NCBI GenBank assembly: GCA_951406725.2
Contig: OX597815.1
Span: forward strand, 62,124,001-62,188,000
Direction: 5' to 3'
Length of the DNA: 64,000 nucleotides
Source of the DNA: Octopus vulgaris
Taxonomy: Eukaryota
The notes beneath the pieces are model-generated. The model ran no database searches. It was not told the DNA's origin and was given only the letters and a program-made list of their open reading frames with translations. Of this stretch, positions 1-62,927 are shown one piece after another; positions within the stretch are counted from its first letter, which is position 1; every line of letters starts with the position of its first letter. The position numbers were made by a program, and so were the translations under genes.

Positions 1-2697
1 CTGAAGTAGATATTTTTGCAGTCCTATGGTGGTTATTTTATAGTAGTTTTCCAGCTGTATAAGGCCTCTACCACCTTCTATACGTTGTATATATAGTCTT
101 TCTATGTCAGATTTTGGGTGATGCATCCTAGATCCTGTCATTATTTTTCTTGTTTTCCTGTCTATTTTGGTCAGTTCATTTCGTGTCCAGTTAAGGATAT
201 TGTAGCTGTAACTTATAACTGGGACAGCTAAAGTGTTGATACCTATTATCTTGTTTTTAGCATTGAGCTCTGTGTTTAGTATTGATCTAACTCGTCTATA
301 ATATTCTTTTTTATTTTCTCTTTCATTTGTGTGTGTTGTGTCTTATCTAGTTCATGGATTCCTAAGTATTTGTAAGTTTGGCTTTGGTCTAATTCTTTTA
401 TTTCATTTGCTTCATCTAGTGTGATGTTGTTACTCTTAACTAGTTTTCCTCTTTTCATGGTTACTTTGGCGCATTTTTCTAATCCAAATTTCATATCTAT
501 TTCTTTGGTAAATCCATGAACTGTCTTTAATAGTGTTTCCAGCTGTTTGTCATTTGCAGCGTATAGTTTTAGGTAATCCATATATAAAAGGTGGCTGATC
601 GTTTTGCCGTAACATTTATATCCGCATCCAGTTCTATTTAGCATATCAGATAGAGGTGACAGTGCCAAGCAGAAAAGGAGTGGAGAGAGCGTATCTCCCT
701 GGAATATTCCTCTTCTAATGGGGATGGCTTTGGTTTTCATGAGTCCCTCTTTTGTTTGGAGCTCTAGCACGGTTTGCCATTTATTCATAGAGTGCTCTAT
801 GAATTTTATGATTGTTGGTGCTACTTTGTTAATGGCTAGTGTTTCGAGGATCCATGTGTGGGGGATGCTATCAAACGCCTTTTTGTAGTCAATCCAGGCC
901 ATACTGAGGCCTTTCTTCTTTCTGTGGCTGTCTTCAGTTATGGCTTTATTAATCATTAGTTGATCTTTACAGCCATATGAGCCTTTGCGGCATCCTTTCT
1001 GCTCTTCTGGGAACAGTTTGTTTTCGTCCAGGTGCTTGTTCAGCCTTTGTGATATCACTGCAGTAAATGCCTTGAACATAGTAGGGAGGCAGGTTATTGG
1101 TCTGTAGTTTTCTGGTTTTTCTGTTTCATTTGATTTGGGAATTAAGATGGTTTTCCCCTTCGTGAGCCATTCAGGCATTGTCTCTGGCTCTGCTAGTACG
1201 TTGTTAAAGTTTTCAGCCAGCTTTTTGTGCATTCCTGTTAGATATTTCAACCAGAAGTTGGGGATCTTGTCATGCCCAGGTGCCTTCCAGTTGCTTAGTC
1301 TTTGCAGTGCCTGGGTGACCTCTTCAGTTGTTATGGGGGTCCAAGTTTGTTCAGATGCCGAGTTTGTTATTTTGATACTCCTTTTTTTTGGTGGTTCGTT
1401 CGCCGACCATATTTCTCCCCAGAATTCTTCCAATTCTTCTGCCGTTGGTGCTGCAGTGACTTCTATTTTATTTTTGCCCAGTTCTTGGTAGAACTTTTTG
1501 GGGTCGGAGTTGAACTTTTTGTTCTGTTCAAAGAAGCGTTGGCGTTTCTCGTACCGGCGGATCCTTTGAGCTTTGGCAAGGATATCTTGCTTCAGCTTTT
1601 CTTTTATCTCCGGCAAATCTTTTTCTGTGTTGTTATATTTGCGGAGTATTTTTGTTCTCTTTCTGTTGCTCAGTAGCGTTGCTTGTTTGCTGATTTCATT
1701 AAGAATCGACAGGTCTTTTCTAATTTTTTTAATTTTGTTTTGGATGTTATTTATCCACAGGGTTTGTTTGGGTGGTGGTACTCCTGTTCGGGCGGGTTTG
1801 GGTGAGTATCCAGCTTCTTTTGTGGCTGCAGTGGCTGCTGCGTATATCAAGTCATTTAGTTCGGTGATATCACTTTTTTTTGTTTCAGTGGCTAGTTCAG
1901 TGACGGCTAGGTTTATGTTGTTTATAATTGGTGTTGTTATTGCGTTTATTTTTATTCTTGGGAGGTATGGTCGGTGGTCCATTTTGAGCTCTGTGGTTTT
2001 TAGTTCTTTGATTATTTTATTTTTTATATTATCATAATCATTAGGCTCCCCTTCGTTGTTTACATCGTGTTTGTTGGGAATGTTGCGTTTGTCTTCGTGT
2101 TTTACAGTTTCAGTGTTTATATTATTGGGCATTGTTGTGTGGCTTCTATCTACATTTTCCTGGTGTATGTTTTCTTTTAGGTGTTCTATTTCTATTTCTG
2201 ATATTTTTTTTGTGTTGAGAATGTATCTTCGTACGTTAGCTAATTTATTAGGGTTCATTGCTGTATCCAAGTCTAAATCTCTATTATTTTCCTTCCATAA
2301 TTTATATGTATGTGTTGTTGTATTTTCATTTTTTGGGTAGAGTACTGCTGTGAAGTATGCGTGTAAGATAGAAATGTATTCCTCACGTGTCCATTTACGT
2401 CTTTTGGGTTTTATTTGCGGGACATGAGGTACAACGTCCGGCCCATTATTTTGACGGTCGTCATTTTCGTAGGGTACCGGTCCGTTTATTTCTGTTGTCA
2501 CATTATTTCGCACGTGTAGTTTTTCGTACATTTTTTGTTGTAGGTTTAATGTACGTACCGCTCGATTGTTATTCTTGGGTTGAATAGTATCGGTGGCATT
2601 TAATTTCTTCGTAGTTCCTTTGTACATGGTGTTTGGGGTCGGAGATGATCGTGATGTTTCACGCATGTTTACATGTGTTGCGTTAGAGGTGGAGATG
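1..2697 (-). mobile_element. R4/Dong-like non-LTR retrotransposon, copy A (5' UTR truncated; runs off the window at its 3' end)
   Basis: ORF 276..2666(-) has RT motifs KAPGHDKIPNFWLK, ENYRPITCL, DYKKAFDS, GIFQGDTLSP, YMDY, YKYLG. Downstream frames give the HHPKSDIERLY..GGRGL motif typical of the R4 clade. The 5' end abuts (TAA)n at 2698-2919. Frameshift near 300. Confidence 0.85.
276..2666 (-). pseudogene. Reverse transcriptase ORF of Dong-like copy A (796 aa; YMDY at the catalytic site; frameshifted at the C-terminus)
   Basis: Translation in the ORF track, with RT motifs in the expected order. Confidence 0.85.
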
Positions 2698-2919
<222 letters not shown>

Positions 2920-4149
2920 AGTTCTCGAGATGCAGAAGACTCCTTCCCCTTTATATTTGTTATAAATGTAGTTTATCATGTTTTGGGTGATGTATTCATT
3001 ACTTCATACTAATCAATCGTGTGGCCTTTTGTTGGATGTGGTCCTGGATTTCCCATTGCTTTTTGTATAGACTGTGAAAGATAAAATTAAATAATTTGTG
3101 TGTTATAAACTAATTGTTAAGTCAGACATTAATAATGACAAATGATTAAAGATGTATTAGCTAGGACCATCTTGTTTCATGTTGATTTCAGACACATTGT
3201 ATTTATGACATAACGTCCAATATATACTCACTTCGTTTTATAGAATAATGACTATGGTGAGGTATGAGGGGAACCTGACTGCTGTTTCTAAGAGAAGTAG
3301 TGATTTAGGCGCTTCCTCATGAAAGCGTTTCTAAAATGGTACCGAGTTTAAGGTAAACAACGGAAACGACTCTTCTTAATTATTTTACTATCTTCGGTCA
3401 TTGACACCATATTAAAGGGATTTTTGTTGATCATATCGACACTGACGCTTTATCGATTTATATTGATCGAATGACTAAGTTTGTGGGAAGAGGCGTAATT
3501 CAATGCACCGTTTTTGTTTGTTATTGATGCACAAACATATTACACACACACATCGCATGACACTCATACACTTATACACACACAAATATATGCATACATA
3601 CATGCACATACATACATACATACATACATACATACATACATACATACATACATACATACATACATACATACATACATACATACATACATAATACACATAC
3701 ACACTCATATGATGGATTTCTACACAGACACCATTTACGAATTCTACTCACAAATTATTGGTGAACCTGGAGCTATATTAGAAGACACACAACTTTTATT
3801 CTTTTAACTTTTAAACGATATGTTTCTGCGAGTTTTAAGGTTCCACTCAAAAGCATTCGCCTTTTACTTTGCTTCTAAGAAGACGCCATCTGGTGATCAA
3901 TATTAATACTATCGATATTCCGATTAGGGTAGTTTTTTTACAGTAAAATAAATTAAAATAACTGAAACTAAAAAAAGAAAATATATATACGATTTGAATA
4001 AAAAATGTCCACCCTTCATTTTCCCACATGTGTGTGTGCGCGCGCGTGCGTATGTCTGTGTGTGTTTGTGCGTGTGTATATATATATATATATATGTATG
4101 TATGAATATAAAAGAGTTGGATAGAGGGAGAAAAAGAAAGTGGGAGGGA

Positions 4150-11884: not shown

Positions 11885-13790
11885 GAAGCTCATTTCTGTC
11901 ATTAGAAAATTGGCATTTGCTGGATATAGTGTTGTAGAGACTCGCGTGTCTAAGTATGGACCATGTAAGGTCGTATTTTGTTTTTGCTTCCTTAAGTCGC
12001 CTGAAAAAATCGGCCAGTGATGCTACATGTCGTTTGAGGATATTTTGAAAGCTGGAGACGTGGTTGCGGTATCGATTTTTGAACAAAATCTGCTTATGCC
12101 CCGATATATACGTAGGGGCTTCCTCGAGTATTTATAGTGCACTTGTTTACGACTTTCTTAGTCATACATTGGTTATCCAAACGGCAATTGGATCTATCTC
12201 TGCATGAGCATAACGATTTGATTTTGGTGGCTCGTGTACATCGAGCGCTGGAAGGATTGGTTCTGTTCGGTATTTTGGTTGCTACTATTATCGTTTTATT
12301 ATCCTTAGGTGTTCTCAGTTCATTATTTAAATTGTTGCTGGTGTTGTTTTTAGGATGGTTATCATGGATATTGTAAGTATTGCTCTGTTGATTGGTAGTA
12401 TAATTTGAGTTATAAACGTTGTCTTTAGGCTGGTCGTATGAGTTATGGTTAATGTCAAGAAGGTTATTTTGAGTCTGACTAATCTCCGTCTCAGTTTACG
12501 GTTGTTAATCCTATGAATATGGTGCTCTAAGTTTGATGAATTTGCATAGGATAGTTTTATAGGATGACGGTTAAATATTTTGCTGTACACCCCATTTTTA
12601 GGGAAGCAGCAATTAAGTGCGATGAAAAATTGTTTCACGATATTAGATGAGATGTTGAAGTTCCAGATTGGGATATACCAAAGGACGTCATGGTTTTGGG
12701 TGGTTGGAGCAATAACTGAATTTTGTGGCAATAGTTGTTTAATTTGTCTATTATAAGTTTTCTTTAACTCATGGTTGATTCTAGTGTGTCTGGGTTTGGT
12801 TAGTCTTAACTTATGGTTTGGGATTCTATTATCCAGGTTTTTGATATTGTTTTTGTAGTTATTGTTGTGTTTGGCAAAGTTGTTATAATGAATGGTATTA
12901 TTACTAGTTGAGTTATAAGAGTTATTATTATTATTACTGTTGCTATTGGCATATTGTATCCGGCCTTCGCTAAGGCTGAGTTATAAATAAGGTGCCTGTA
13001 TGTTGAATATATTTCATTTGCGGATAACCTGTATATTCTAGCCGAGATGTTGTTAATAAGTCCCCTAATTATTGATGGTGGATGATTAGGTCCAGCATTG
13101 ATGTGTTTTAGGTTCTCATTAGGTTTATGGAACGGTTCGTGTAGACCAGTATCCAAGTCAAAAGTAGCATCTAAAAAGTTGACTCTACGGTATTCATTGA
13201 TTATAGTGAGAGAGAGTCCATTATTTATAAAAAAATTTAAATAAAGATTTTTGTACTTTTCGTGTACTTTGCTACATCTATGTAGGAAGAATTAGACGTC
13301 ATCTCTGTATAGGCCTCCATTCAATCCAGGAATAGATAATTGTATCTGGGATAGGATGTAAATTCCTACAATGTTAGTTACTTCTGAAGAATCAAATGAT
13401 CCCATAGCTATGTCAAACGCATCTGGAGTGTCAGACCTATTCCATAAATTGTTATCATAATCTAACAAGGTTCCTCGTGCAGCTAATTTCTAGCAAAGAT
13501 TAAAGCCTTATTTAACAGGATAGGGTTGATATTGGCATAATACCCTTCTATGTCTAGTTGAATGAATTTGCTTTGTTTGCTTCTTATTAAGTGGTTCAAC
13601 CATCCGATTATTGTTGGGTGTCGGACCATAGTGCTAGGGTATTTCTAGATCGAAGTTTGGGTATAATCCTATCTAATATTGTCTTACTTATACTCCCGAT
13701 ATCAGATTTTGAGGGACAGATTAATCTAACAGAGGCAGCGATACGGAAGTTTGGCTTGTGATCATTTAGTTGTATTCGAGGTTTGCGTGG
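11885..13790 (-). mobile_element. Degenerate Naiad-like Penelope element (RT + GIY-YIG, many stops and frameshifts)
   Basis: Fragments DHKPNF..VRLICPSKSDIGSISKTILDRI, PFHKPNENLKHINAGPNHPPSII, VLWYIP..FPKN..KIFNRHPIKLSY, FKNRYRNH..WSIL occur in collinear order. Confidence 0.8.
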
Positions 13791-14310
13791 TACATAAGGT
13801 TCATATATATGTGCGCGTGCTTGTGTGTATATGTATATACGTGTAGAGATATACATGTCTACATCCCTATCGGCGCGCACTTGCGTTGTTTATACGTATA
13901 TGTATATATTAATTTAAATTTGTGTATACGAGTGCATGGGCGAATGTTTATGTGTATACGCATACATATATTTATATGTGTGTGTGTATGTGTATATGTA
14001 TATGTGTGTATATATTTACTTATTTGTATACGCGAGTGTATTACCACGTGTGCGTATTTCAAACTTTGCACAGACGTCTGTATATTGCTTTACTTACGAA
14101 TATCTGCATATATTTATCTACGCTATGTGCGTATGTTTATGTATATATGCGCGTGTGTGCCTGTATATATTTGATCCTATACATATATGTATGTATGTAT
14201 TCGTCAATACGTGTGCGTATGCACGTGTATCATGTTGCACGTATACACCCATATATTTGGATGTGCGTGTGTGAGCGCGTATGTATAAGTGCGTATATAT
14301 ATATATGTAC

Positions 14311-17439: not shown

Positions 17440-18269
17440 CTGAAAGAAGCTCGGCTCGCCAATTAATACTACCAAAATTTAATGACAGAAAGTAAAATAA
17501 AAACCAATTTACCTTTTCTGTATTGTTATAGCAATTCGACCGTCCGTGTGTCTTTGCAAATGTGTTGGAATGAGGAGTTGTGTTTGGCGCCTTTTTTACT
17601 TATAACAAACACACACGTGTTTGTATGTAGTTGTTTGAAACGTTTGTGTTTGTCACTGTCATATATGTATGTGTATGCGTGTGTGTGAGGAATGACACAC
17701 ACACACACTCACGCACGCACACATGTACATCAATGCTTTCGGAGTGAAATGTTAAAATATTGAGTTTTCTCGAATTTTGTCTTAATTGGGGGTAAAATTG
17801 AAAGAAATTTTGTATGGCATGACCCAATGGAAGTACTTTGAAAAATCATGGGTAAACTCTAATTGAAGAAATTGTGTGAGGAGTAAATCGTTATGTATTT
17901 ATTTGTTTCTGTTTGCTGTGTTTTTTTTTTAGTAGTGGTTTAGTTTCACTTTAATCGTTGCAAACTTGCAAAGAGAAAGCCGTAGAAATTAGAGTGATAG
18001 CGTCAGTGAATCAGATCGCTCCCTTTTTGTGTGTGTGTGTGTGTGCGTGTGCTCTAGCCCACACTAAGAAAAGCACTTGACTTACACACCACAATGTGAG
18101 TTTTCTCTAAATTTTGCTTAATTGGGGTTGAAATTTTAAAAACTGGACCTGGCACGACCCGATGCATTCTACTCTTAAAAATGCTAGGTAAATTGTAATT
18201 GAAGAAATCCTATATTGTAGATTTCTATAAGAGACAAAGGGAGGCAGATATAAAATCTGCCTTTTATAG
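17440..18269 (-). mobile_element. Probable third Helitron-like element with an internal ~110-bp direct repeat
   Basis: The minus-strand start ctataaaaggcagattttatatctgcc resembles the other Helitron 5' ends. 17761-17870 is similar to 18097-18208. The 3' end is degenerate. Confidence 0.4.
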
Positions 18270-19860
18270 CCCTGTAGTCTCCCGCCTCCCTTTTCCCCTC
18301 ACTTACCACCCCACGACCCTACGTCTCCAACGCACCATTCTTCGAGCTTTCCGTCGTCTCCAGTCCGACCCGTCCACTTCACACCTCTTCCCTAACCGAC
18401 CCCTCCCCTCTTTCAAACGAGCCCACAACCTTCGAGACCTTTTGGTCCATAGCTCCTTCCCTGACCCTACCTCCCAACCCGGCTCGTTCCCCTGCTCCCG
18501 CCCACGTTGCCGCACTTGCCCTTACCTCTCCAACACCACCCGCCTCACTAGCACCTACCATCGACCCTATCCCATCATCCACTCCTTCACCTGCACCTCC
18601 AGCAATATTATCTATTGCATCTCTTGCTCTCTCTGCAATTCCTTGTACATCGGACAAACGGGACGCCGCTTGGCTGACCGGTTCGCGGAACACCTTCGTG
18701 ACATCCACCTTGCGAACGACACACCGGTCTCACGCCATTTCCGCTCCACCGGTCACTCCTTGCAACACCTATCTGTGTTCGGTTTGTCCTTACACAGAGG
18801 CCATCCGGATTCCCGTTTGCGCCGTGAACAGGAATTAATCTTCTCTCTTCGCTCTTATACGCCATTTGGTCTCAACTCTCCCCCCTCCTCATCTAACCCC
18901 CTCTCCCCCTCCTCACCTATCCTTTCTCCCCCCGACCCCCACTTCTTCAGTCCTTCATCCTTTCACCCCTACTCCCCTTCCCTTGTTCCCTCTTTCTCCC
19001 TCCCTCTTCCCCTTCCCTCTGCTCCCTCACTCCCTCTCTCCCCTTCTCTCTCCCCCTCTCCCTCTTTCCTCCTTCATCCCTCTCCTCCCCTTCCTTCTCC
19101 CCATCCTCTCCTCTTCACCCTCCCCTCCCCCTCTTCTTCCCCTCCCCTTCTCCCCCTCTTCTCCCCTCCCCCTCTTCTCCTCACTACACCACATGACTTT
19201 ACACATCACATCACATATGATGTGCCATACTAATACACACACCAACTAATACATACTAATACGTACTAATACATACTAGTACATACTAATACTTACACCA
19301 ACCCTATACATACACACGTCCAGACCCCGCATACGCACTTATACTCTCTCACACACACACACACACACACCTATACATACCAATACGTACTAATACATAC
19401 TAATACATACTAATACATACACCAACCCCATACATACGCACGTCCAGACCAATCCCACGCACTGATACTCTCTCATACACACACACACACACACACACAC
19501 ACCCTTATACATACTAATACATACACCAACCCTATACATACACATCCAGACCCCTCCCACGCACTTTTAGCTGGTCCCTCAACCCTATTATCTCCCCTTA
19601 TTTCGCTCTCGCGTCTCATGTTTGATCTTTGACCTCTGGCCGAAATCAGATCGCCATGTTGATTCGTTAGCTACTGCACGCATTTTTTTCTCTCCTTCTT
19701 TCTGTGTTTTTCTCTCTCTGTGTATCTTTCTGTTGAAGAGCGTAGGCTCGAAACGTTAAAGACTTGTTTTATTTATATTTCCTGAGCGCCATACTAATAC
19801 AATTGTTCGTTTGTTTTCCACCTGCCTTCGTCTTTTGTTTATTTTCATAAAGCTTCCCGT

Positions 19861-28237: not shown

Positions 28238-28305
<68 letters not shown>

Positions 28306-28310
28306 TTGTG

Positions 28311-28347
<37 letters not shown>

Positions 28348-28350
28348 TAT

Positions 28351-28393
<43 letters not shown>

Positions 28394-28396
28394 TAT

Positions 28397-28435
<39 letters not shown>

Positions 28436-28438
<3 letters not shown>

Positions 28439-29183
28439 CATAAGGGACATTAGCCAACTGAATATGGCTAGGGACAGGGCAGGGTGGTGGGGGTGTCACT
28501 GTTGCATTTAGCCCCAGGCGAACATCAACGTCACCAGATAGGCCGACGCCATCACGGCGTCCTCTATCTTGCAAAGGGAGATCATTACCCAAGAAGCGGA
28601 TGCCACATACGGACCTAGGTTTCAAGGTGTATTGCCTATTATCAACGTGCAAGATAGAGGACGCCGTGATGGCGTCGGCCTATCTGGTGACGTTGATGTT
28701 CGCCTGGGGCTAAATGCAACAGTGACACCCCCACCACCCTGCCCTGTCCCTAGCCATATTCAGTTGGCTAATGTCCCTTATGTTATGGAGCAGTCACTGT
28801 CTATATCTCATTTAGAGAATTATTATTGCTGTCGAACACATTTTCGAAATCAGTAAATGTATTTACTTGAAAATCTTTATATATATCTTGCACGGTGAGT
28901 TGTTCGTCGAGAAGCGGTGCCTACCATACGTTGATAATAGGCAATACACCTTGAAACCTAGGCCCGTATGTGGCATCCGCTTCTTGGGGAATGATCTCCC
29001 TTTGCAAGATAGAGGACGCCGTGATGGCGTCGGCCTATCTGGTGACGTTGATGTTCGCCTGGGGCTAAATGCAACAGTGACACCCCCACCACCCTGCCCT
29101 GTCCCTAGCCATATTCAGTTGGCTAATGTCCCTTATGTTATGGAGCAGTCACTGTCTATATCTCATTTAGAGAATTATTATTG

Positions 29184-29185
<2 letters not shown>
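28436..29185. mobile_element. Unclassified non-coding retrozyme-like element: 355-bp unit in ~1.5 tandem copies plus an inverted segment, within (TA)n
   Basis: 28648-28830 matches 29003-29185. 28436-28648 is the reverse complement of about 28929-29141. Confidence 0.7.
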
Positions 29186-29229
<44 letters not shown>

Positions 29230-29492
29230 GTTGAAACAATCGTAGTGGTTCTGAATAAAGAGTCTCGTGAATTCCGTTTACTATTTCTGACATGTTACAC
29301 ACATGCACTTGCGTGCGCGCGCACACACATACGTACGCGCGCATAGACACATATATATATATACATATGTGTGTGTGTGTGTGTGTGTATGTACTTAGGT
29401 TTCCCTATATATACACACATGAAAACATAAGGGCATGAAAGTAACGATATGTACATCTGTTTTCATACGATCCTCCGTACTGGAATGCGAAT

Positions 29493-29537
<45 letters not shown>

Positions 29538-29539
<2 letters not shown>

Positions 29540-31756
29540 GCCCCTGGCCAGATCCTAGCAGTGGATCTTTTCGCGGGCGCTTGTCAGCGTGCATTGGAGC
29601 GGTTCAACTTCTCCAGGCGCCAACGCCGCCTCAACATCTCCCCGGCTGAGCTCTTGGCTCTTCGTTCCCTCCAACGGTGCGCTGACATTATCATCAAACC
29701 GGCTGACAAGGGTGGAGCTGTAGTGGTGTGGCGCGCGGACCTCTATAGGGCCGAGGCTTTCCGCCAACTCAATGACACCTCCTTCTATTCCCCTCTGCCC
29801 TCTAACCCCACACGTAGCTACCAACAGACGGTATCCTCTACTGTCCAAGACCTCATCTCGTCCTCCCGTCTCCCCCGCACCGCATCCAACCTAATTGTGC
29901 GAACCCCACGTACCCCCACCATTTACTTCCTCCCCAAAATCCACAAACCCAACAACCCTGGCCGCCCCATCGTCTCCGCCTGTAACTGCCCCACGGAGCT
30001 CATCTCTAAATACCTCGACCGTGTCCTTGCCCCCCTAGTGGCATCTCTTCCCTCCCACATCCACGATACCAACCATGCTCTCCGGCTTTTCAACTCTTTC
30101 TCCTTTCCTCCCGGCTCCTCCAAAATCCTTTTTACTATGGACATCCAAAGCCTCTATACTGTTATCCCTCACCACGAAGGACTGCAGGCCCTTCGACACT
30201 TTCTTGACCTCCGCTCTAACCCTGTACCTGACACCTCCACACTCATTCGTCTGACCGAACTTGTCCTTACTCTGAACTGCTTCTCGTTCGCGGGCGAGTT
30301 CTACCATCAGGTCTCGGGAGTGGCCATGGGAACGCGAATGGGCCCCAACTATGCGAACCTGTTCGTTGGCTATGTTGAGGCCCAAATATTCTCTAATTTC
30401 ACTGGTCCCACTCCTGAACTATATGGTCGTTACATCGACGACATTATCGGTGCCACCTCACTCTCCCGCGAACATCTAGATTCCTTCCTCTCTTTCGTCC
30501 AATCTTTCCATCCAGCCCTCCACTTCACTTCCACTATCTCCAACACCTCTGTCTCCTTCCTCGACATTTCGGTTAGCATTCTTCACTCCACTCTTACCAC
30601 CTCCATTCACTACAAACACACAGACTCACACTCATACCTCAACTTCTCTTTCTCCCACCCAGAACACACCAAGCTTTCCATCCCCTATTCCCAATTCCTC
30701 CGTCTACATAGGCTCTGTAGTGACGACCATGACTTTGAGACTCAGTCTCAACGTATGGCTCACCACTTCACCCTACGTGGATACCCCCTCACCACTATCC
30801 ACACCGCCCTTGCCAGAGCAGGGTCCGTGGACCGTGTATCTGCTCTCTCTCCCCGAACCCACCCTGTAGTCTCCCGCCTCCCTTTTCCCCTCACTTACCA
30901 CCCCACGACCCTACGTCTCCAACGCACCATTCTTCGAGCTTTCCGTCATCTCCAGTCCGACCCGTCCACTTCACACCTCTTCCCTAACCGACCCCTCCCC
31001 TCTTTCAAACGAGCCCACAACCTTCGAGACCTTTTGGTCCATAGCTCCTTCCCTGACCCTACCTCCCAACTCGGCTCGTTCCCCTGCTCCCGCCCACGTT
31101 GCCGCACTTGCCCTTACCTCTCCAACACCACCCGCCTCACTAGCACCCACCATCGACCCTATCCCATCATCCACTCCTTCACCTGCACCTCCAGCAATAT
31201 TATCTATTGCATCTCTTGCTCTCTCTGCAATTCCTTGTACATCGGACAAACGGGACGCCGCTTGGCTGACCGGTTCGCGGAACACCTTCGTGACATCCAC
31301 CTTGCGAACGACACACCGGTCTCACGCCATTTCCGCTCCACCGGTCACTCCTTGCAACACCTATCTGTGTTCGGTTTGTCCTTACACAGAGGCCATCCGG
31401 ATTCCCGTTTGCGCCGTGAACAGGAATTAATCTTCTCTCTTCGCTCTTATACGCCATTTGGTCTCAACTCTCCCCCTCCTCATCTAACCCCCCTCTCCCC
31501 CTCCTCACCTATCCTTTCCCCCGACCCCTACTTCTTCAGTCCTTCATCCTTTCACCCCTACTCCCCTTCCCTTGTTCCCTCTTTCTCCCTCCCTCTTCCC
31601 CTTCCCTCTGCTCCCTCACTCCCTCTCTCCCCTTCTCTCTCCCCCTCTCCCTCTTTCCTCCTTCATCCCACTCCTCCCCTCCTCTCCTCTTCCCCCTCTC
31701 CTCCCCTCTTCTTCCCCTCCCCTTCTCCCCCCTCTTCTCCTCACTACACCACATGA
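29538..31756 (+). CDS. Penelope RT/GIY-YIG polyprotein, open frame lacking its native start
   Basis: ORF 29435..31756. The first ~34 aa are microsatellite flank, and the C-terminal Pro/Ser tail is read-through into the CT-rich UTR. Confidence 0.8.
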
Positions 31757-31789
31757 CTTTACACATCACATCACATATGATGTGCCATA

Positions 31790-32130
31790 CTAATACACAC
31801 ACCAACTAATACATACTAATACGTACTAATACATACTAGTACATACTAATACATACACCAACCCTATACATACACACGTCCAGACCCCGCATACGCACTT
31901 ATACTCTCTCATACACACACACACACACTTATACATACCAATACGTACTAATACATACTAATACATACTAATACATACACCAACCCCATACATACGCACG
32001 TCCAGACCAATCCTACGCACTAATACTCTCTCATACACACACACACACACACACACACCCTTATACATACTAATACATACACCAACCCTATACATACACA
32101 CATCCAGACCCCTCCTACGCACTATTAGCT
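31790..32130 (+). repeat. Minisatellite (~110-120-bp units, 3 copies) in the Penelope 3' UTR; also at 19230-19570
   Basis: Recurring caccaacccYatacatac..tccagacc units. Confidence 0.75.
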
Positions 32131-32294
32131 GGTCCCTCAACCCTTTTATCAACCCTATTATCTCCCCTTATTTCGCTCTCGCGTCTCATGTTTGATCTTT
32201 GACCTCTGGCCGAAATCAGATCGCCATGTTGATTCGTTAGCTACTGCACGCATTTTTTTCTCTCCTTCTTTCTGTGTTTTTCTCTCTCTGTGTA

Positions 32295-32332
32295 TCTTTC
32301 TGTTGAAGAGCGTAGGCTCGAAACGTTAAAGA
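32295..32332 (+). ncRNA. Minimal type I hammerhead ribozyme variant
   Basis: Identical to 19725-19762. Confidence 0.72.
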
Positions 32333-32429
32333 CTTGTCTTATTTATATTTCCTGAGCGCCATACTAATACAATTGTTCGTTTGTTTTCCACCTGCCTTCG
32401 TCTTTTGTTTATTTTCATAAAGCTTCCCG

Positions 32430-32469
<40 letters not shown>

Positions 32470-39162: not shown

Positions 39163-40400
39163 GGGTATGCCATGGTTGATGATGCGCAGACACGCGCTGA
39201 GACTGCGACATCTCCGGCTCTATGTAGACGACGGTGAACAGGTGTGGTCGCCGTTTGTGAGGCACGCGTTCCCGCAGCTCGTCTCCATGACCGAACTGCA
39301 GTCGTGGATCAAAAAGAGGCCGAGGAAGGGCGAATGGCACCGCGATTGTCGCGTTGCTCTCAAGCAACTCTGCCGTCCCGGGTCGACCTTGAGTGACTTC
39401 AACACGACCAAAGCATTCTATAGGGGATTAGTGGAGGGGAGGTACGACGACGAACTTGGGGCAAACCTGGGCGTCGACGAGGAATACCTGACCCGCCTGT
39501 TCAGGACGACTTTCGGGCCGGGACCTATGGACAACTTCCAGAGATCCCTGGCCTGGTGGTGCTACCGAGAAGCGCTACCCGTTCGGGATAAGCTCTATAG
39601 GCATGGCTCGAGAAACGGGGCCGACCTGCCCGAGATGCGGGCAGAGCGACGAAACCGTTCTGCACGCAATCGTGCAGTGTCCAACAATCTCCGACCTGTG
39701 GGCATATGTCGAACAACTGCTGTCACGTGTGGGACGTGTCAGTTTATCAGCCGAGTCTGTCGTTAATATCGTCACGCCTCCTTCCTTCAAACGGGAAGGA
39801 AGAGCTATTTTTATCATCCTTGTGGCTATGGCGAAAGAATGTATCTGGTGGACGCGCTTGAAAAGATTAGAGACAAACACTTTCCTCTCTGGTCAATCTC
39901 TCATCAACTTCTTCAAGTATCACTTGAAGAGGAAAGTGAGAGTAGAGAGGCAGGTTTTGTCTAGTGAATGTTTTAAAAACTGATGGGTGAATGTAGCAAG
40001 GATGGCACGTATGAATGACGAAGCCACCTTGACTATGATTCTATGAACCGTAAAAATTAATACAGAGAGTTGCTTATTTGCAAAAAAAAAGAAATATAAC
40101 ATATGACTTCATTGACCGAGGTTACCGTGGTCTTTTCCGTAGGCTTTTCTTTCCACGGGTAAACCTCAACTGTCCTCCCCTTTACACTTCATATTGACAT
40201 TTCTGTGATAACGATCCCTATTGATCAAATTTTTTTCCTTCCCCCCACCTTTTTTTAAAAATTATATCCCCCCCTTATTTTGTCCTCTTTCTTTCCATTT
40301 ACGATCCCTTTTGATCGAAAACCAAACCCCCTTCTTTTACCTCCAAAAGAAAAGCTCCACCTTGTAATTTTGTCCTGTCTGTGTGCAGCCCTGTGTGGCA
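39163..40400 (+). mobile_element. 5'-truncated Tx1/L1-clade LINE copy within (TCTA)n
   Basis: Highly similar to 42930-43980; CCHC motif CPRC..ETVLHAIVQC. Confidence 0.9.
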
Positions 40401-40401
40401 A

Positions 40402-40493
<92 letters not shown>

Positions 40494-40498
40494 GTCTG

Positions 40499-43400
40499 TC
40501 TTCCGCGGGCCCTAAAGACCATGTTTGGCGGACAGTTCGACATTTATTTTTCCCCCTGTCTGCCGAGAATGGGCGGTAGTGGCACCGCGGTACTTTTTCA
40601 CAAGAGTCTGGATCTCAAAGTAAGGACAATATTCGTAGACCCGGAGGGTAGACTGGTCGTCCTGGATGTCGACGGCAGCAATGGGTGCGCTTTTCGACTC
40701 GTATCAGTCTACGCACCGCCCTTAACAGGTCGGGCGGATTTCTTTCAACGTCTAGAAGTATTCTTGGGAACGTCTCGTCCTTTACTCTTAGTGGGGGATT
40801 GGAATGCTACCTTGGACACGCATTTAGACTACGTGGGTAGAGATAGGAATAGACGGGGATGCAAATGCCTCAGAGACCTGCTCAGACGCTTTCAATTGTC
40901 TGACAGGTTCCGACTAGACCACCCGAATGCGCCAACATGGACATGGAGCAACAGCATCGGGTCGTCGAGATCGTATCTAGATAGGATACTGTGTAGGACA
41001 GTAGACAGAGATAGCATAGGATGTCCACAATTCCACATAGTCAGCTACACGGATCACAAACTTGTGACATGTACGCTAGACTTAGGTAAGACACTTAGGC
41101 AGGGTCCCGGATACTGGAAACTAAACGCGTCTTTCCCATCGAGACAGGTTTTCAGAGACCGGATTAGCACACTAGTAAAGAGGGCTTTGACGGAAGCCAT
41201 CATCAACAACAAATGGTGGTTTGCCCTCAAGAGAGCAGTAAAAGCAGAAGCGATTAGGTACAGCAAAGCACTAGCCATAGATAGAAATAGAGTAGAGGGT
41301 GAGCTAGTTAAGAAGCTAGAAGAGGCAATTAGAAGCGGCATCGCATCCGACGTTTTGGCGGCGAGGTTGGCCCTCGACCAACACTTCAACGCCAAACACG
41401 AAGGATGTGCTGTCAGAGCTAGGATGCGTGCTCTAAGGAACGAAGGTGTTGGAGCCGCGAGAGAGGCCCGGGTGGCAGAGGCGCAACAGGGCAACAAAGC
41501 CACCATTCGGTCCCTGGTAGATGAACAGGGGCGCGAATTGCTCGAGCCAAGTAAAATGTGTGAGGCCTTTCAGCAGCATTTTGCCCGACTGTTCGGAACG
41601 AGTGGAGGGCAAGAACGTAGGGTGGACTTCAGTGCCTACCTACATAGCCTACCACGACTCTCGACAAGAAAGGCAGGGTGCTGCGAAGGTGCCATCACGG
41701 CGGCGGAAGTGCAGGAAGCGATGGCAGAATGCTCGAGGGACAAATCACCGGGTTTGGATGGTCTACCCTACGAGCTTTACAATTGTATGCCAGACTTGTT
41801 TGGAGATCTCTTGGCGGCGGTGTACTGCAACTGGCAGCAAAACGGGAGCATTCCTGGTTTTGTGAGCCGAGGAGCCGTAACACTGCTGAAGAAAGATCTA
41901 AACAAGGGAAATGTAATAGATAACTTTAGGCCCATCACTCTGCTTAATGCAGACTTGAAAATTTTGGCCAAGGTGCTAGCCAAGAGGTTGGCGCTTGTCA
42001 TCGAGAAACTGGTCGACAAGGCGCAAACATGCGCCGTGCCAGGCCGGACCATCCATGACAACCTCCACCTGATGCGCTACATCATAGACAGGGTAGTTAA
42101 CGAACCTGGCATGGGTGGGGCGCTGATCAATTTGGATCAATCGAAAGCTTTCGATGGGGTGGACCATCGATACTTGGAGGCGGTCCTCGGAGCGGCTGGC
42201 TTCGGTCCCGTCTTCCGCGGCTGGATAGCTGCTTTGTACAGAGGCATCCGTTCGGTAATTCGCGTGAATGGACATCTATCGAGACCCTTCGACATCGCAC
42301 GTTCGGTCCGTCAGAGATGCCCCCTCTCGTCGCTTCTATACGTATTGACTCTCGCGCCATTATTGCGGAAGCTGGCAACCTTGAGAGGCATCCCGCGAGA
42401 ACTGGGATGCGGGACGAGCGTGTCTGCATACGCGGACGACGTCACCGTCATAGTGTCTAGCCACGAGCACATCGAGCAGGTCGGCGAGAAAACTGAAAAA
42501 CTACGAAGCGGTGACAGGAGCGAAAATCAACCGGGAAAAGTCAGTGGGCTTGCGACTAGGCACCTGGAGAAGCAAGCCCATGCCGTCCACCAGCGCCTCC
42601 GTCGTGGGACGCTGGACCGACGGCCCGGTTGAGTTGCTCGGGGTCTGGTTTGGTCCGGACCTCCAAGTGGAGAAGAACTGGAACGAGATAACGAGTAGGG
42701 TGGTCACTCTCGCCCGGCAATGGGCCGAGAGGAAACTGTCCCTAAAAGGTCGGTGGGAGGTGGCGAACACGTACATCGCGTCCGTCATCTACTACCGCCT
42801 GACCGTCGTACCTTGTCCCGACCCTACCATCACCAAACTACAACGCATTCTCTTTCGCTTCTCGTGGAAAGGATGCGTCCCGATGGTCAGGCGATCCATT
42901 TGCTGTCAACACCCGTTAAAAGGAGGGCTGGGCATGCCGTGGTTGATGATGCGCAGACACGCGCTGAGACTGCGACATCTCTGGCTCTATGTAGACGACG
43001 GTGAACAGGTGTGGTCGCCGTTTGTGAGGCACGCTTTCCCGCAGCTCGTCTCCATGACCGAACTGCAGTCGTGGATCAAAAAGAGGCCGAAGAAGGGCGA
43101 ATGGCACCGCGAGTGTCGCGTTGCTCTCAAGCAACTCTGCCGTCCCGGTTCGACCTTGAGTGACTTCAACACAACCAAAGCATTCTATAGGGGTTTAGTG
43201 GAGGGGAGGTACGACGACGAGCTCGGGGCGAACCTGGACGTCGACGAGGAGTACCTGACCCGCCTGTTCAGGACGACTTTCGGGTCAGGGCCCATGGACA
43301 ACTTCCAGAGATCCCTGGCCTGGCAGTGCTACCGAGAAGCGCTACCCGTTCGGGATAAGCTCTACAGACACGGCTCGCGAAACACGGGCCGACCTGCCCG

Positions 43401-43990
43401 AGATGCGGTCAGAGCGACGAAACCGTTCTGCACACACTCGTGCAGTGTCCAACAATTTCCGACCTGTGGGCTTATGTCGAACAACTGCTGTCGCGTGTGG
43501 GACGAGTCGGTTTATCAGCTGAGTCTATCGTCAATATTGTCACGCCTCCCTCCTTCAAACGGGAAGGAAGAGCTATTTTCATCATCCTTGTGGCTATGGC
43601 GAAAGAATGTATCTGGTGGACGCGTCTGAAAGGATTAGAGACAAACACTTTCCTCTCTGGTCAATCTCTCATCAACTTCTTCAAGTACCACTTGAAAAGG
43701 AAAGTGAGAGTAGAGAGGCAAGTTTTGTCTAGCGAATGTTTCAAAAAAAGATGGGTGAATGTAGCAAGAATGGCACGTATGAATGACGAAACCACCTTGA
43801 GCATGATCCTATGAACCCAGAAATTGAAAACAGAGAGTTGCTTATTCGCAAAAAAAAAAAAAAAGAAATATAACATGTGACTCCATTGACCGAGGTTACC
43901 GTGGTCTTTTCCGGTCTTTTCCTTCAAAAGAAAAGCTCTACCTTGTAATTTGTTCTATCTGTGTGCAGCCCTGTGTGGCTAATAAAGAAA
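40499..43990 (+). mobile_element. Tx1/L1-clade LINE ORF2 (APE endonuclease + RT + CCHC), two frameshifts, within (TCTA)n
   Basis: EN motifs: GTAVL, VSVYAP, VGDWN, YLDRI, TDH. Also GPGYWKLN. RT motifs: KSPGLDG, NFRPITLLN, DQSKAFD, RQRCPLS, YADD. Frameshifts near 42490 and 43390. Ends AATAAAGAAA. Confidence 0.92.
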
Positions 43991-59561: not shown

Positions 59562-62783
<3,222 letters not shown>

Positions 62784-62927
62784 TACAACTCTGCTGTTGA
62801 ATGCTCTCGTATTTTGTATTATGAGCTTTAAGCAATCTTCTTTTGTATGTCTGTCTGTCTCTCCCTCTCAATCAATCAATCACTCAATCAATGAATCAAG
62901 CAATTAATCAAGCAATGAAACGATTGG

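Follow-up and report, generated by a model that had tools for sequence, protein, structure and literature searches.

A dispersed 355-nt repeat of Octopus vulgaris with a hammerhead motif: a probable non-LTR retrozyme that a Penelope-like element likely inserts into (TA)n

A short structured repeat lies between two (TA)n runs of the Octopus vulgaris genome (assembly GCA_951406725.2, contig OX597815.1), partly in tandem and partly inverted. What kind of element is it, and how did it come to be copied there in two orientations? The stretch analysed (the window) comprises 64,000 nucleotides, positions 62,124,001 to 62,188,000 of the forward strand, and its own numbering is used below. An initial annotation had described the repeat as a viroid-like rod with no recognizable known ribozyme, copied in trans, plausibly by a Penelope-like element (PLE) just downstream.

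The tandem-plus-inverted layout inside (TA)n given in that annotation holds. Between the (TA)n runs there is an exact direct repeat of 183 nt with a spacing of 355 (28648-28830/29003-29185) and an inverted arm of 214 nt (28435-28648) with 99% identity and two mismatches (Table 1). The motifs quoted were found at their positions apart from CCGCTTCT, which is at 28977, the start of the compound motif being near 28972. The open reading frame listing of the window includes a 176-codon stop-free frame across 28816-29346. The unit is considered non-coding because unit lengths vary from 353 to 364 nt and frame-breaking indels separate the families. Both the hairpin at 29106-29125 and the short end site, 29141, lie inside the 8-bp stem of the conserved 3' module, a putative RT-recognition element. 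Every family retains a TATA-like run in front of the long arm, at 28876-28887 in the window (unit positions ~46-57). No terminal direct repeats besides the unit itself were seen at the retrozyme loci inspected.

Table 1. Features of the insertion, in window coordinates
Feature	Position	Strand	Remarks
(TA)n-rich left flank, target microsatellite	28238..28437	.	
Inverted arm, unit bases 98-311	28435..28648	-	short end site (311) at the outer 3' end
Hammerhead motif of the inverted arm	28606..28648	-	core and GUC site intact; exact core match 28612-28645
Upstream partial unit of the forward arm (bases 173-355)	28648..28830	+	
Complete 355-nt monomer, 45.6% G+C	28831..29185	+	forward arm stops at the long end site (355)
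Long covarying arm extending hammerhead stem I	28884..29011	+	28884-28892/29003-29011; 28910-28921/28972-28984
Type I hammerhead motif	28925..28970	+	motif and covariation
Conserved 3' module	29074..29155	+	8-bp stem 29074-29081/29148-29155
44-nt 'tail' separating end sites 311 and 355	29142..29185	+	
(TA)n right flank	29185..29227	.	

The repeat is neither a single genomic copy nor an assembly artefact. When the 2.8-Gb genome (227 contigs) was searched, at least 128 matches to the unit were obtained from 40 scored of 1279 candidates, and the 34-nt ribozyme core was present in 121 exact copies (reversed control, 0). A looser hammerhead pattern requiring G8 gave 2170 further motifs (reversed control, 0), which are those of sister families with units of 353-364 nt; full units of these families are 71-95% identical, and partial matches go down to about 62%. 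Arms of sister families reach about ten units (locus L132), and the families with C at core position 4 (CCGAYGA, CCGAAGA; loci L105, L109, L132, L136, L118, L119 and L141) include the longest and most uniform arrays observed. Dispersed tandem monomers within the ~170-400 nt range of metazoan non-LTR retrozymes, a G+C content under 50% and one type I hammerhead per unit agree with that class. The sister families were reached through unit-like pieces in contigs of four putative RNA runs (X1, X2, X5 and X10), which carry no weight on expression.

More distant relatives, ~70% identical to L142, occur at L263 (9021-9317), L301 (1334-1605) and L307 (6476-6716); that at L263 has a CUGAUGA core and a compensated 8-bp 3' stem. 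The 10,578 matches of the 3' hairpin were rejected as a count of retrozymes, since 14 of 20 fetched loci, all chosen from one variant, are another element. The latter (L151-L170; for example, L155 1224-1630, minus strand) is a dispersed element of ~400 bp that ends in a G+C hairpin and CTAG and, at the same 14 of 20 loci, includes ~70 bp of the conserved 3' module of a sister retrozyme. Its 3' end is presumably Helitron-like.

The initial annotation had matched no hammerhead core in either orientation. The plus strand nevertheless contains a type I hammerhead motif, with its core boxes (N3 U4 G5 A6 N7 N8 A9; G12 A13 A14; A15.1-U16.1; H17) in type I order. Stem I (28925-28930 paired with 28965-28970) leads into the core UUGAUAA at 28931-28937 (U3-A8), followed by stem II (28938-28952, with U-U at its base), GAAA (28953-28956) and a palindromic stem III (28956-28963); the predicted cut site is after 28964 (C17). 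Position 28963 (16.1) is C in this forward copy and U in the family. At loci retrieved by plain DNA search, without selection for the ribozyme, 59 of 61 segments have T at the corresponding unit base, 133, and the window's own inverted arm also has T at 16.1. The motif was missed because of the U3-A8 core and this rare U16.1-to-C change. In the inverted arm, the arm junction trims the 5' strand of stem I to 3 nt. As each arm has a single hammerhead, one mutated and one clipped, this copy would release no monomer.

Comparison of 23 aligned units shows that the motif is conserved as a structure. The 3-8 pair is C-G in nine units, U-G in seven and U-A in seven, with no broken row. Cells are paired at 100% in helix I, 95.6% in helix III and 82.6% in helix II, whose closing pair is unpaired in 16 of the 23 rows; the overall value is 94.2%, versus 21.6-55.7% for slid partners, a result that is no probability, the shuffles ignoring relatedness among the rows. 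Two of the six stem I pairs are changed on both sides, and the stem III palindrome is preserved through double changes. Sister families have the cores CUGAAGA, CUGACGA, UUGACGA, UUGAUGA and CCGAYGA, some of them fully canonical, and differ in their stem III palindromes. Intact cores number 116 of 120, a figure inflated by the choice of loci as best full-length or exact core matches. All 23 rows have a bulge after helix I and a loop 2 beginning with CAA, features that may resemble the schistosome hammerhead motif and that bear on a putative loop 1-loop 2 tertiary contact.

Rfam was silent, returning no hammerhead and only microsatellite noise from the window and no match at E 10 from an intact unit copy; the hammerhead call therefore rests on the motif and its covariation. 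Neither scan reported HDV, twister, pistol or hairpin ribozymes, and a motif descriptor found no hammerhead on the minus strand. The undescribed ribozyme or host processing suggested in the initial annotation is not required, because the type I motif covaries and its core variant has been published: both a U3-A8 core and action as a dimer via a palindromic helix III have been described (PMC4209133). In an isolated 73-nt piece, the active hammerhead fold is 6.2 kcal/mol weaker than the best fold (-18.4 versus -24.6). In the axolotl retrozyme HHR_Amex2, helix II likewise has a U-U base and helix III is 2 bp long (PMC7229834), and eight of nine predicted Xenopus retrozyme dimers were uncut in vitro (bioRxiv 10.64898/2026.07.22.740005).

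Folded as a circle, the unit is more stable than 100 dinucleotide shuffles on the plus strand (-112.0 kcal/mol, z -4.3) and also on the minus strand (-102.7 kcal/mol, z -3.3). The proposed rod with a central cruciform is borne out only in part. Six of its nine helices have mean pair probabilities of 0.96-1.0, whereas those of the other three (28833/29052, 28852/28861 and 29065/29164) are 0.00-0.01. The plus-strand fold is branched, with 61% of bases paired, and forcing the end-to-end rod with its cruciform costs 11.6 kcal/mol (-100.4 versus -112.0). Among the 23 units, the rod-closing helices 28833/29052 and 29065/29164 have double-sided changes at none of their six and seven pairs, respectively; such changes occur at 4/9 and 5/12 pairs of the long arm, 2/6 of the hammerhead stem and 3/6 of the hairpin 29015-29031. 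By this modelling, the element is not a viroid-like end-to-end rod.

Insertions of the family have a characteristic footprint. Seventy-six distinct loci were compared, of which 47 are two-armed and 29 have a single arm, ending at the short site in 21 and at the long site in 8; repeat retrievals of a locus and segments below 85% identity were left out. One end at 303-311 and one at 346-355, ranges that allow overlap with TA, were found in 43 of the 47 two-armed loci, and two short ends in none. L008, L022, L047 and L087 are the four exceptions. L008 is scored 355/355 after removal of an arm by the 85% cut-off: this inverted arm (957-1254) is 79% identical, is interspersed with other sequence and is likely an assembly error at a palindrome. 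Both end sites are reused by the diverged sister families, and 117 of 123 outer ends have at least five TA steps in the next 20 nt. Inner ends fall throughout the unit and do not cluster at the cut site, which is crossed by 107 of the 123 arms, a count that is inflated because sampling by best match or exact core favours long arms. At all multi-unit loci, the arms pass from unit base 1 back into base 355 and never into an ORF.

A tail, an inverted arm and (TA)n bias are features of PLEs (PMC8557442). An anole PLE, the protein of which is predicted to be a dimer, has been shown in vitro to start reverse transcription at two sites and to prime on both strands (PMC11167929). The two-ended, two-armed octopus footprint matches a PLE 'tail' insertion, as would be expected of a PLE passenger, and suggests that a Penelope-type enzyme likely makes two simultaneous copies of one RNA, each from its own fixed start.

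Both arms carry one haplotype, which is consistent with a single template RNA per insertion. Of 820 polymorphic site-locus pairs, 800 show agreement among the segments of a locus, where independence would give 444. Sixteen rare variants are common to segments within loci, 10 of them across opposite arms, and 169 variants are confined to one segment. Units (L008 excluded) differ by 1.16% within a locus, by 1.11% when taken from opposite arms and by 3.73% when taken from different loci; in a 360-nt sister family, the respective values are 0.26%, 0.10% and 2.16%, and the 12 segments of the sister locus L132 have identical substitutions. Gene conversion after insertion could add to the identity within loci. 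A linear cut monomer yields at most 177 or 221 nt per arm and most arms are longer, in a sample that favours long arms; the simplest explanation is that the template is likely an RNA circle.

We conclude, with good confidence, that the locus is a single insertion from a dispersed family of non-coding 355-nt repeats bearing a type I hammerhead motif. The repeat is likely a non-LTR retrozyme; its RNA is predicted to self-cleave and circularize, and a PLE likely copied this RNA into (TA)n. A tandem copy would be transcribed, two hammerheads would pair via the palindromic stem III to excise a monomer, and the monomer would be ligated to give a circle. The PLE RT-endonuclease would then cut both (TA)n strands, and each DNA end would prime reverse transcription on the same RNA, at 311 and 355. 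Each cDNA would circle for a variable distance before the inner ends were joined, giving the tandem-plus-inverted array. More tentatively, and short of an even chance in our estimation, a PLE dimer may reverse-transcribe a single RNA circle twice at once, starting at 311 and 355 and rolling into both (TA)n ends, with the carrier recruited by the conserved 3' stem module and not by pLTR homology. If this is true, the arrays are a genomic record of rolling-circle TPRT, which would account for the PLE tail and inversion together.

The same element and PLE carrier might do without a circle if the template were a linear multimer, left uncleaved and produced by read-through of a long tandem array, with a hammerhead that is weak or has another role. 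Long homogeneous sister arrays (L132, L136) could be sources, although the haplotype that each locus has to itself, in all units and both arms, would call for a separate uniform long source each time. In vitro, insertion by the anole PLE was unchanged by hammerhead mutants, and uncleaved RNA was its main substrate (PMC11167929). Most octopus arms cross the cut site, but unit-specific variants recurring in the same order were not seen across nine sister loci (by eye), and the conserved core and palindrome imply selection for cutting. A linear multimer is considered unlikely as template, and a circle copied by a PLE is retained as the preferred reading.

The PLE next to the unit is a 5'-truncated Neptune-type element (RVT_1) at about 29538-32432 (+), ~350 bp downstream. 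It was named as the plausible source in the initial annotation, of which the general idea still stands: a Penelope-like RT acting in trans on a small structured RNA, likely a circle. The adjacent Neptune as source is not supported. This Neptune is young, abundant and TA-targeted, with 3' ends 99-100% identical in 40 scored of 1301 candidates. It has no similarity to the unit (best E 0.44). Only one 3' end was found in its 30 best loci and an inverted arm of its own family in none of 20 wide loci (16/20 in the first pass; 3' end covered in all), counts in which a shorter second end may be under-sampled, the loci being best matches to the window's own end. Lacking homology and two-armed copies, it was rejected for now as the carrier. 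A second copy of the Neptune-type PLE lies at ~18200-19860 of the window, and the unit of this family is 4484 bp in L201; a minimal hammerhead-like motif with U3 and G8 was seen by eye near 32303.

Other PLE families also leave two-armed, two-ended insertions in (TA)n. The two ends are ~70 nt apart in the Hydra-clade L252 family (one of each in five of six two-armed loci), ~150 nt in the Hydra families L253/L263, ~40 nt in the Neptune-type L294 family (one of each in both two-armed loci) and ~30 nt in the L307 family (one locus). None of these has homology to the unit or the 44-nt tail in the fetched loci; all four groups are candidate carriers. Naiad elements were not among the families identified. 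Two of three Hydra-clade proteins have the CxCx5C linker motif. The family of L294 (L291-L306), the second of Neptune type, has an open frame of 781 codons at each of its 16 fetched loci. The Hydra clade is abundant in the genome (12350 candidates), with open frames of 722, 745 and 904 aa (L251-L270), and the terminal repeat of the L252 family contains a hammerhead-like motif. The window itself contains a broken Hydra-clade PLE at ~11900-13800 (-) and other retrotransposon-like RT frames at 276-2972 (-), 40368-43814 (+) and 59961-62907 (+).

The unit could also be a terminal repeat (pLTR) that has become detached from an autonomous PLE, the arrays being 5'-truncated copies of it, much as Xenopus retrozymes match pLTRs (bioRxiv 10.64898/2026.07.22.740005). 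At the loci examined, the unit was never the terminal repeat of a PLE ORF, and among the Neptune and Hydra loci fetched, from searches in which 150 of 12350 and 150 of 6136 candidates were scored, no autonomous PLE showed either terminal-repeat homology to the unit or the 44-nt tail. PLE fragments near retrozyme loci are separate from the units, and arms at multi-unit loci run from base 1 to base 355 and not into an ORF. In one case (L223, 2509-2690), an old retrozyme-related 3' piece does adjoin a Hydra-type ORF fragment on the same strand, a junction for which a template switch or an insertion with deletion is possible. We regard a detached pLTR as improbable, and a non-autonomous retrozyme carried by a PLE remains the favoured interpretation. 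The pair C1:1716087/1719667 was considered as a pLTR-ORF-pLTR arrangement and rejected, both being short fragments with no PLE ORF between them.

For all its stable circular fold, the silence of Rfam and a young, abundant, TA-targeted neighbour, a viroid-like rod that relies on host processing or on a ribozyme not yet described, with the adjacent Neptune as its carrier, is hardly credible given the covarying hammerhead motif, the unsupported rod-closing helices and a neighbour without homology or own-family inverted arms.

The element belongs to a known class, and the claims of a new ribozyme and of a viroid-like replicon therefore fall. The part worth experiment is the footprint of two ends and one template. 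How PLEs generate tailed, tandem-plus-inverted insertions and whether they carry retrozymes are posed as questions in PMC8557442, PMC7229834 and bioRxiv 10.64898/2026.07.22.740005. A protein-free substrate of 355 nt, with two mapped ends, near-strict pairing of these and a natural C-G/U-G/U-A series at 3-8, is a small and cheap test system for both. In literature searches of incomplete coverage, no work joining non-LTR retrozymes with PLE tails and inverted copies was found, nor, outside the supplement of PMC7229834, any such element in work on octopus hammerhead ribozymes or on mollusc retrozymes since 2021.

The octopus unit appears to have the features of a metazoan non-LTR retrozyme that can be tested in sequence. 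Those of mussel (350-390 bp) and axolotl (Rtz_353/HHR_Amex2), as described by Cervera and de la Pena (2020, PMC7229834), are alike in size, in G+C content under 50%, in tandem monomers, in a type I hammerhead with a short palindromic helix III and in a stable self-paired fold; HHR_Amex2 shares the U-U at the base of helix II, and PLEs were proposed there as the carriers. The octopus unit differs in its U3-A8 core, and its cutting and circles are predicted from sequence alone. Its inverted arms, two fixed ends and (TA)n targeting go unmentioned in the main text of that paper, as does octopus. Replacement of C3-G8 by U3-A8, together with a palindromic helix III, is shared with the hammerheads of the Schistosoma mansoni PLE Cercyon (Cervera and de la Pena 2014, PMC4209133); those are minimal motifs linked to a PLE, whereas in the octopus motif helix I is 6 bp long and greatly extended, and the 355-nt unit around it encodes no protein. 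Vertebrate retrozymes have been presented as non-autonomous PLE derivatives (bioRxiv 10.64898/2026.07.22.740005), the same proposed class of carrier, on the grounds of co-occurrence and pLTR homology; in octopus the link is insertion anatomy, with no pLTR homology found. With the PLE footprint described by Craig et al. (2021, PMC8557442) and Frangieh et al. (2024, PMC11167929), the unit shares partial tandems, an inverted truncated copy, a tail at one end, (TA)n bias and two RT starts, and it departs from it in having no ORF, a tail of 44 nt as against 30-40 (PMC8557442), arms of many units and a near-strict rule of one end of each kind.
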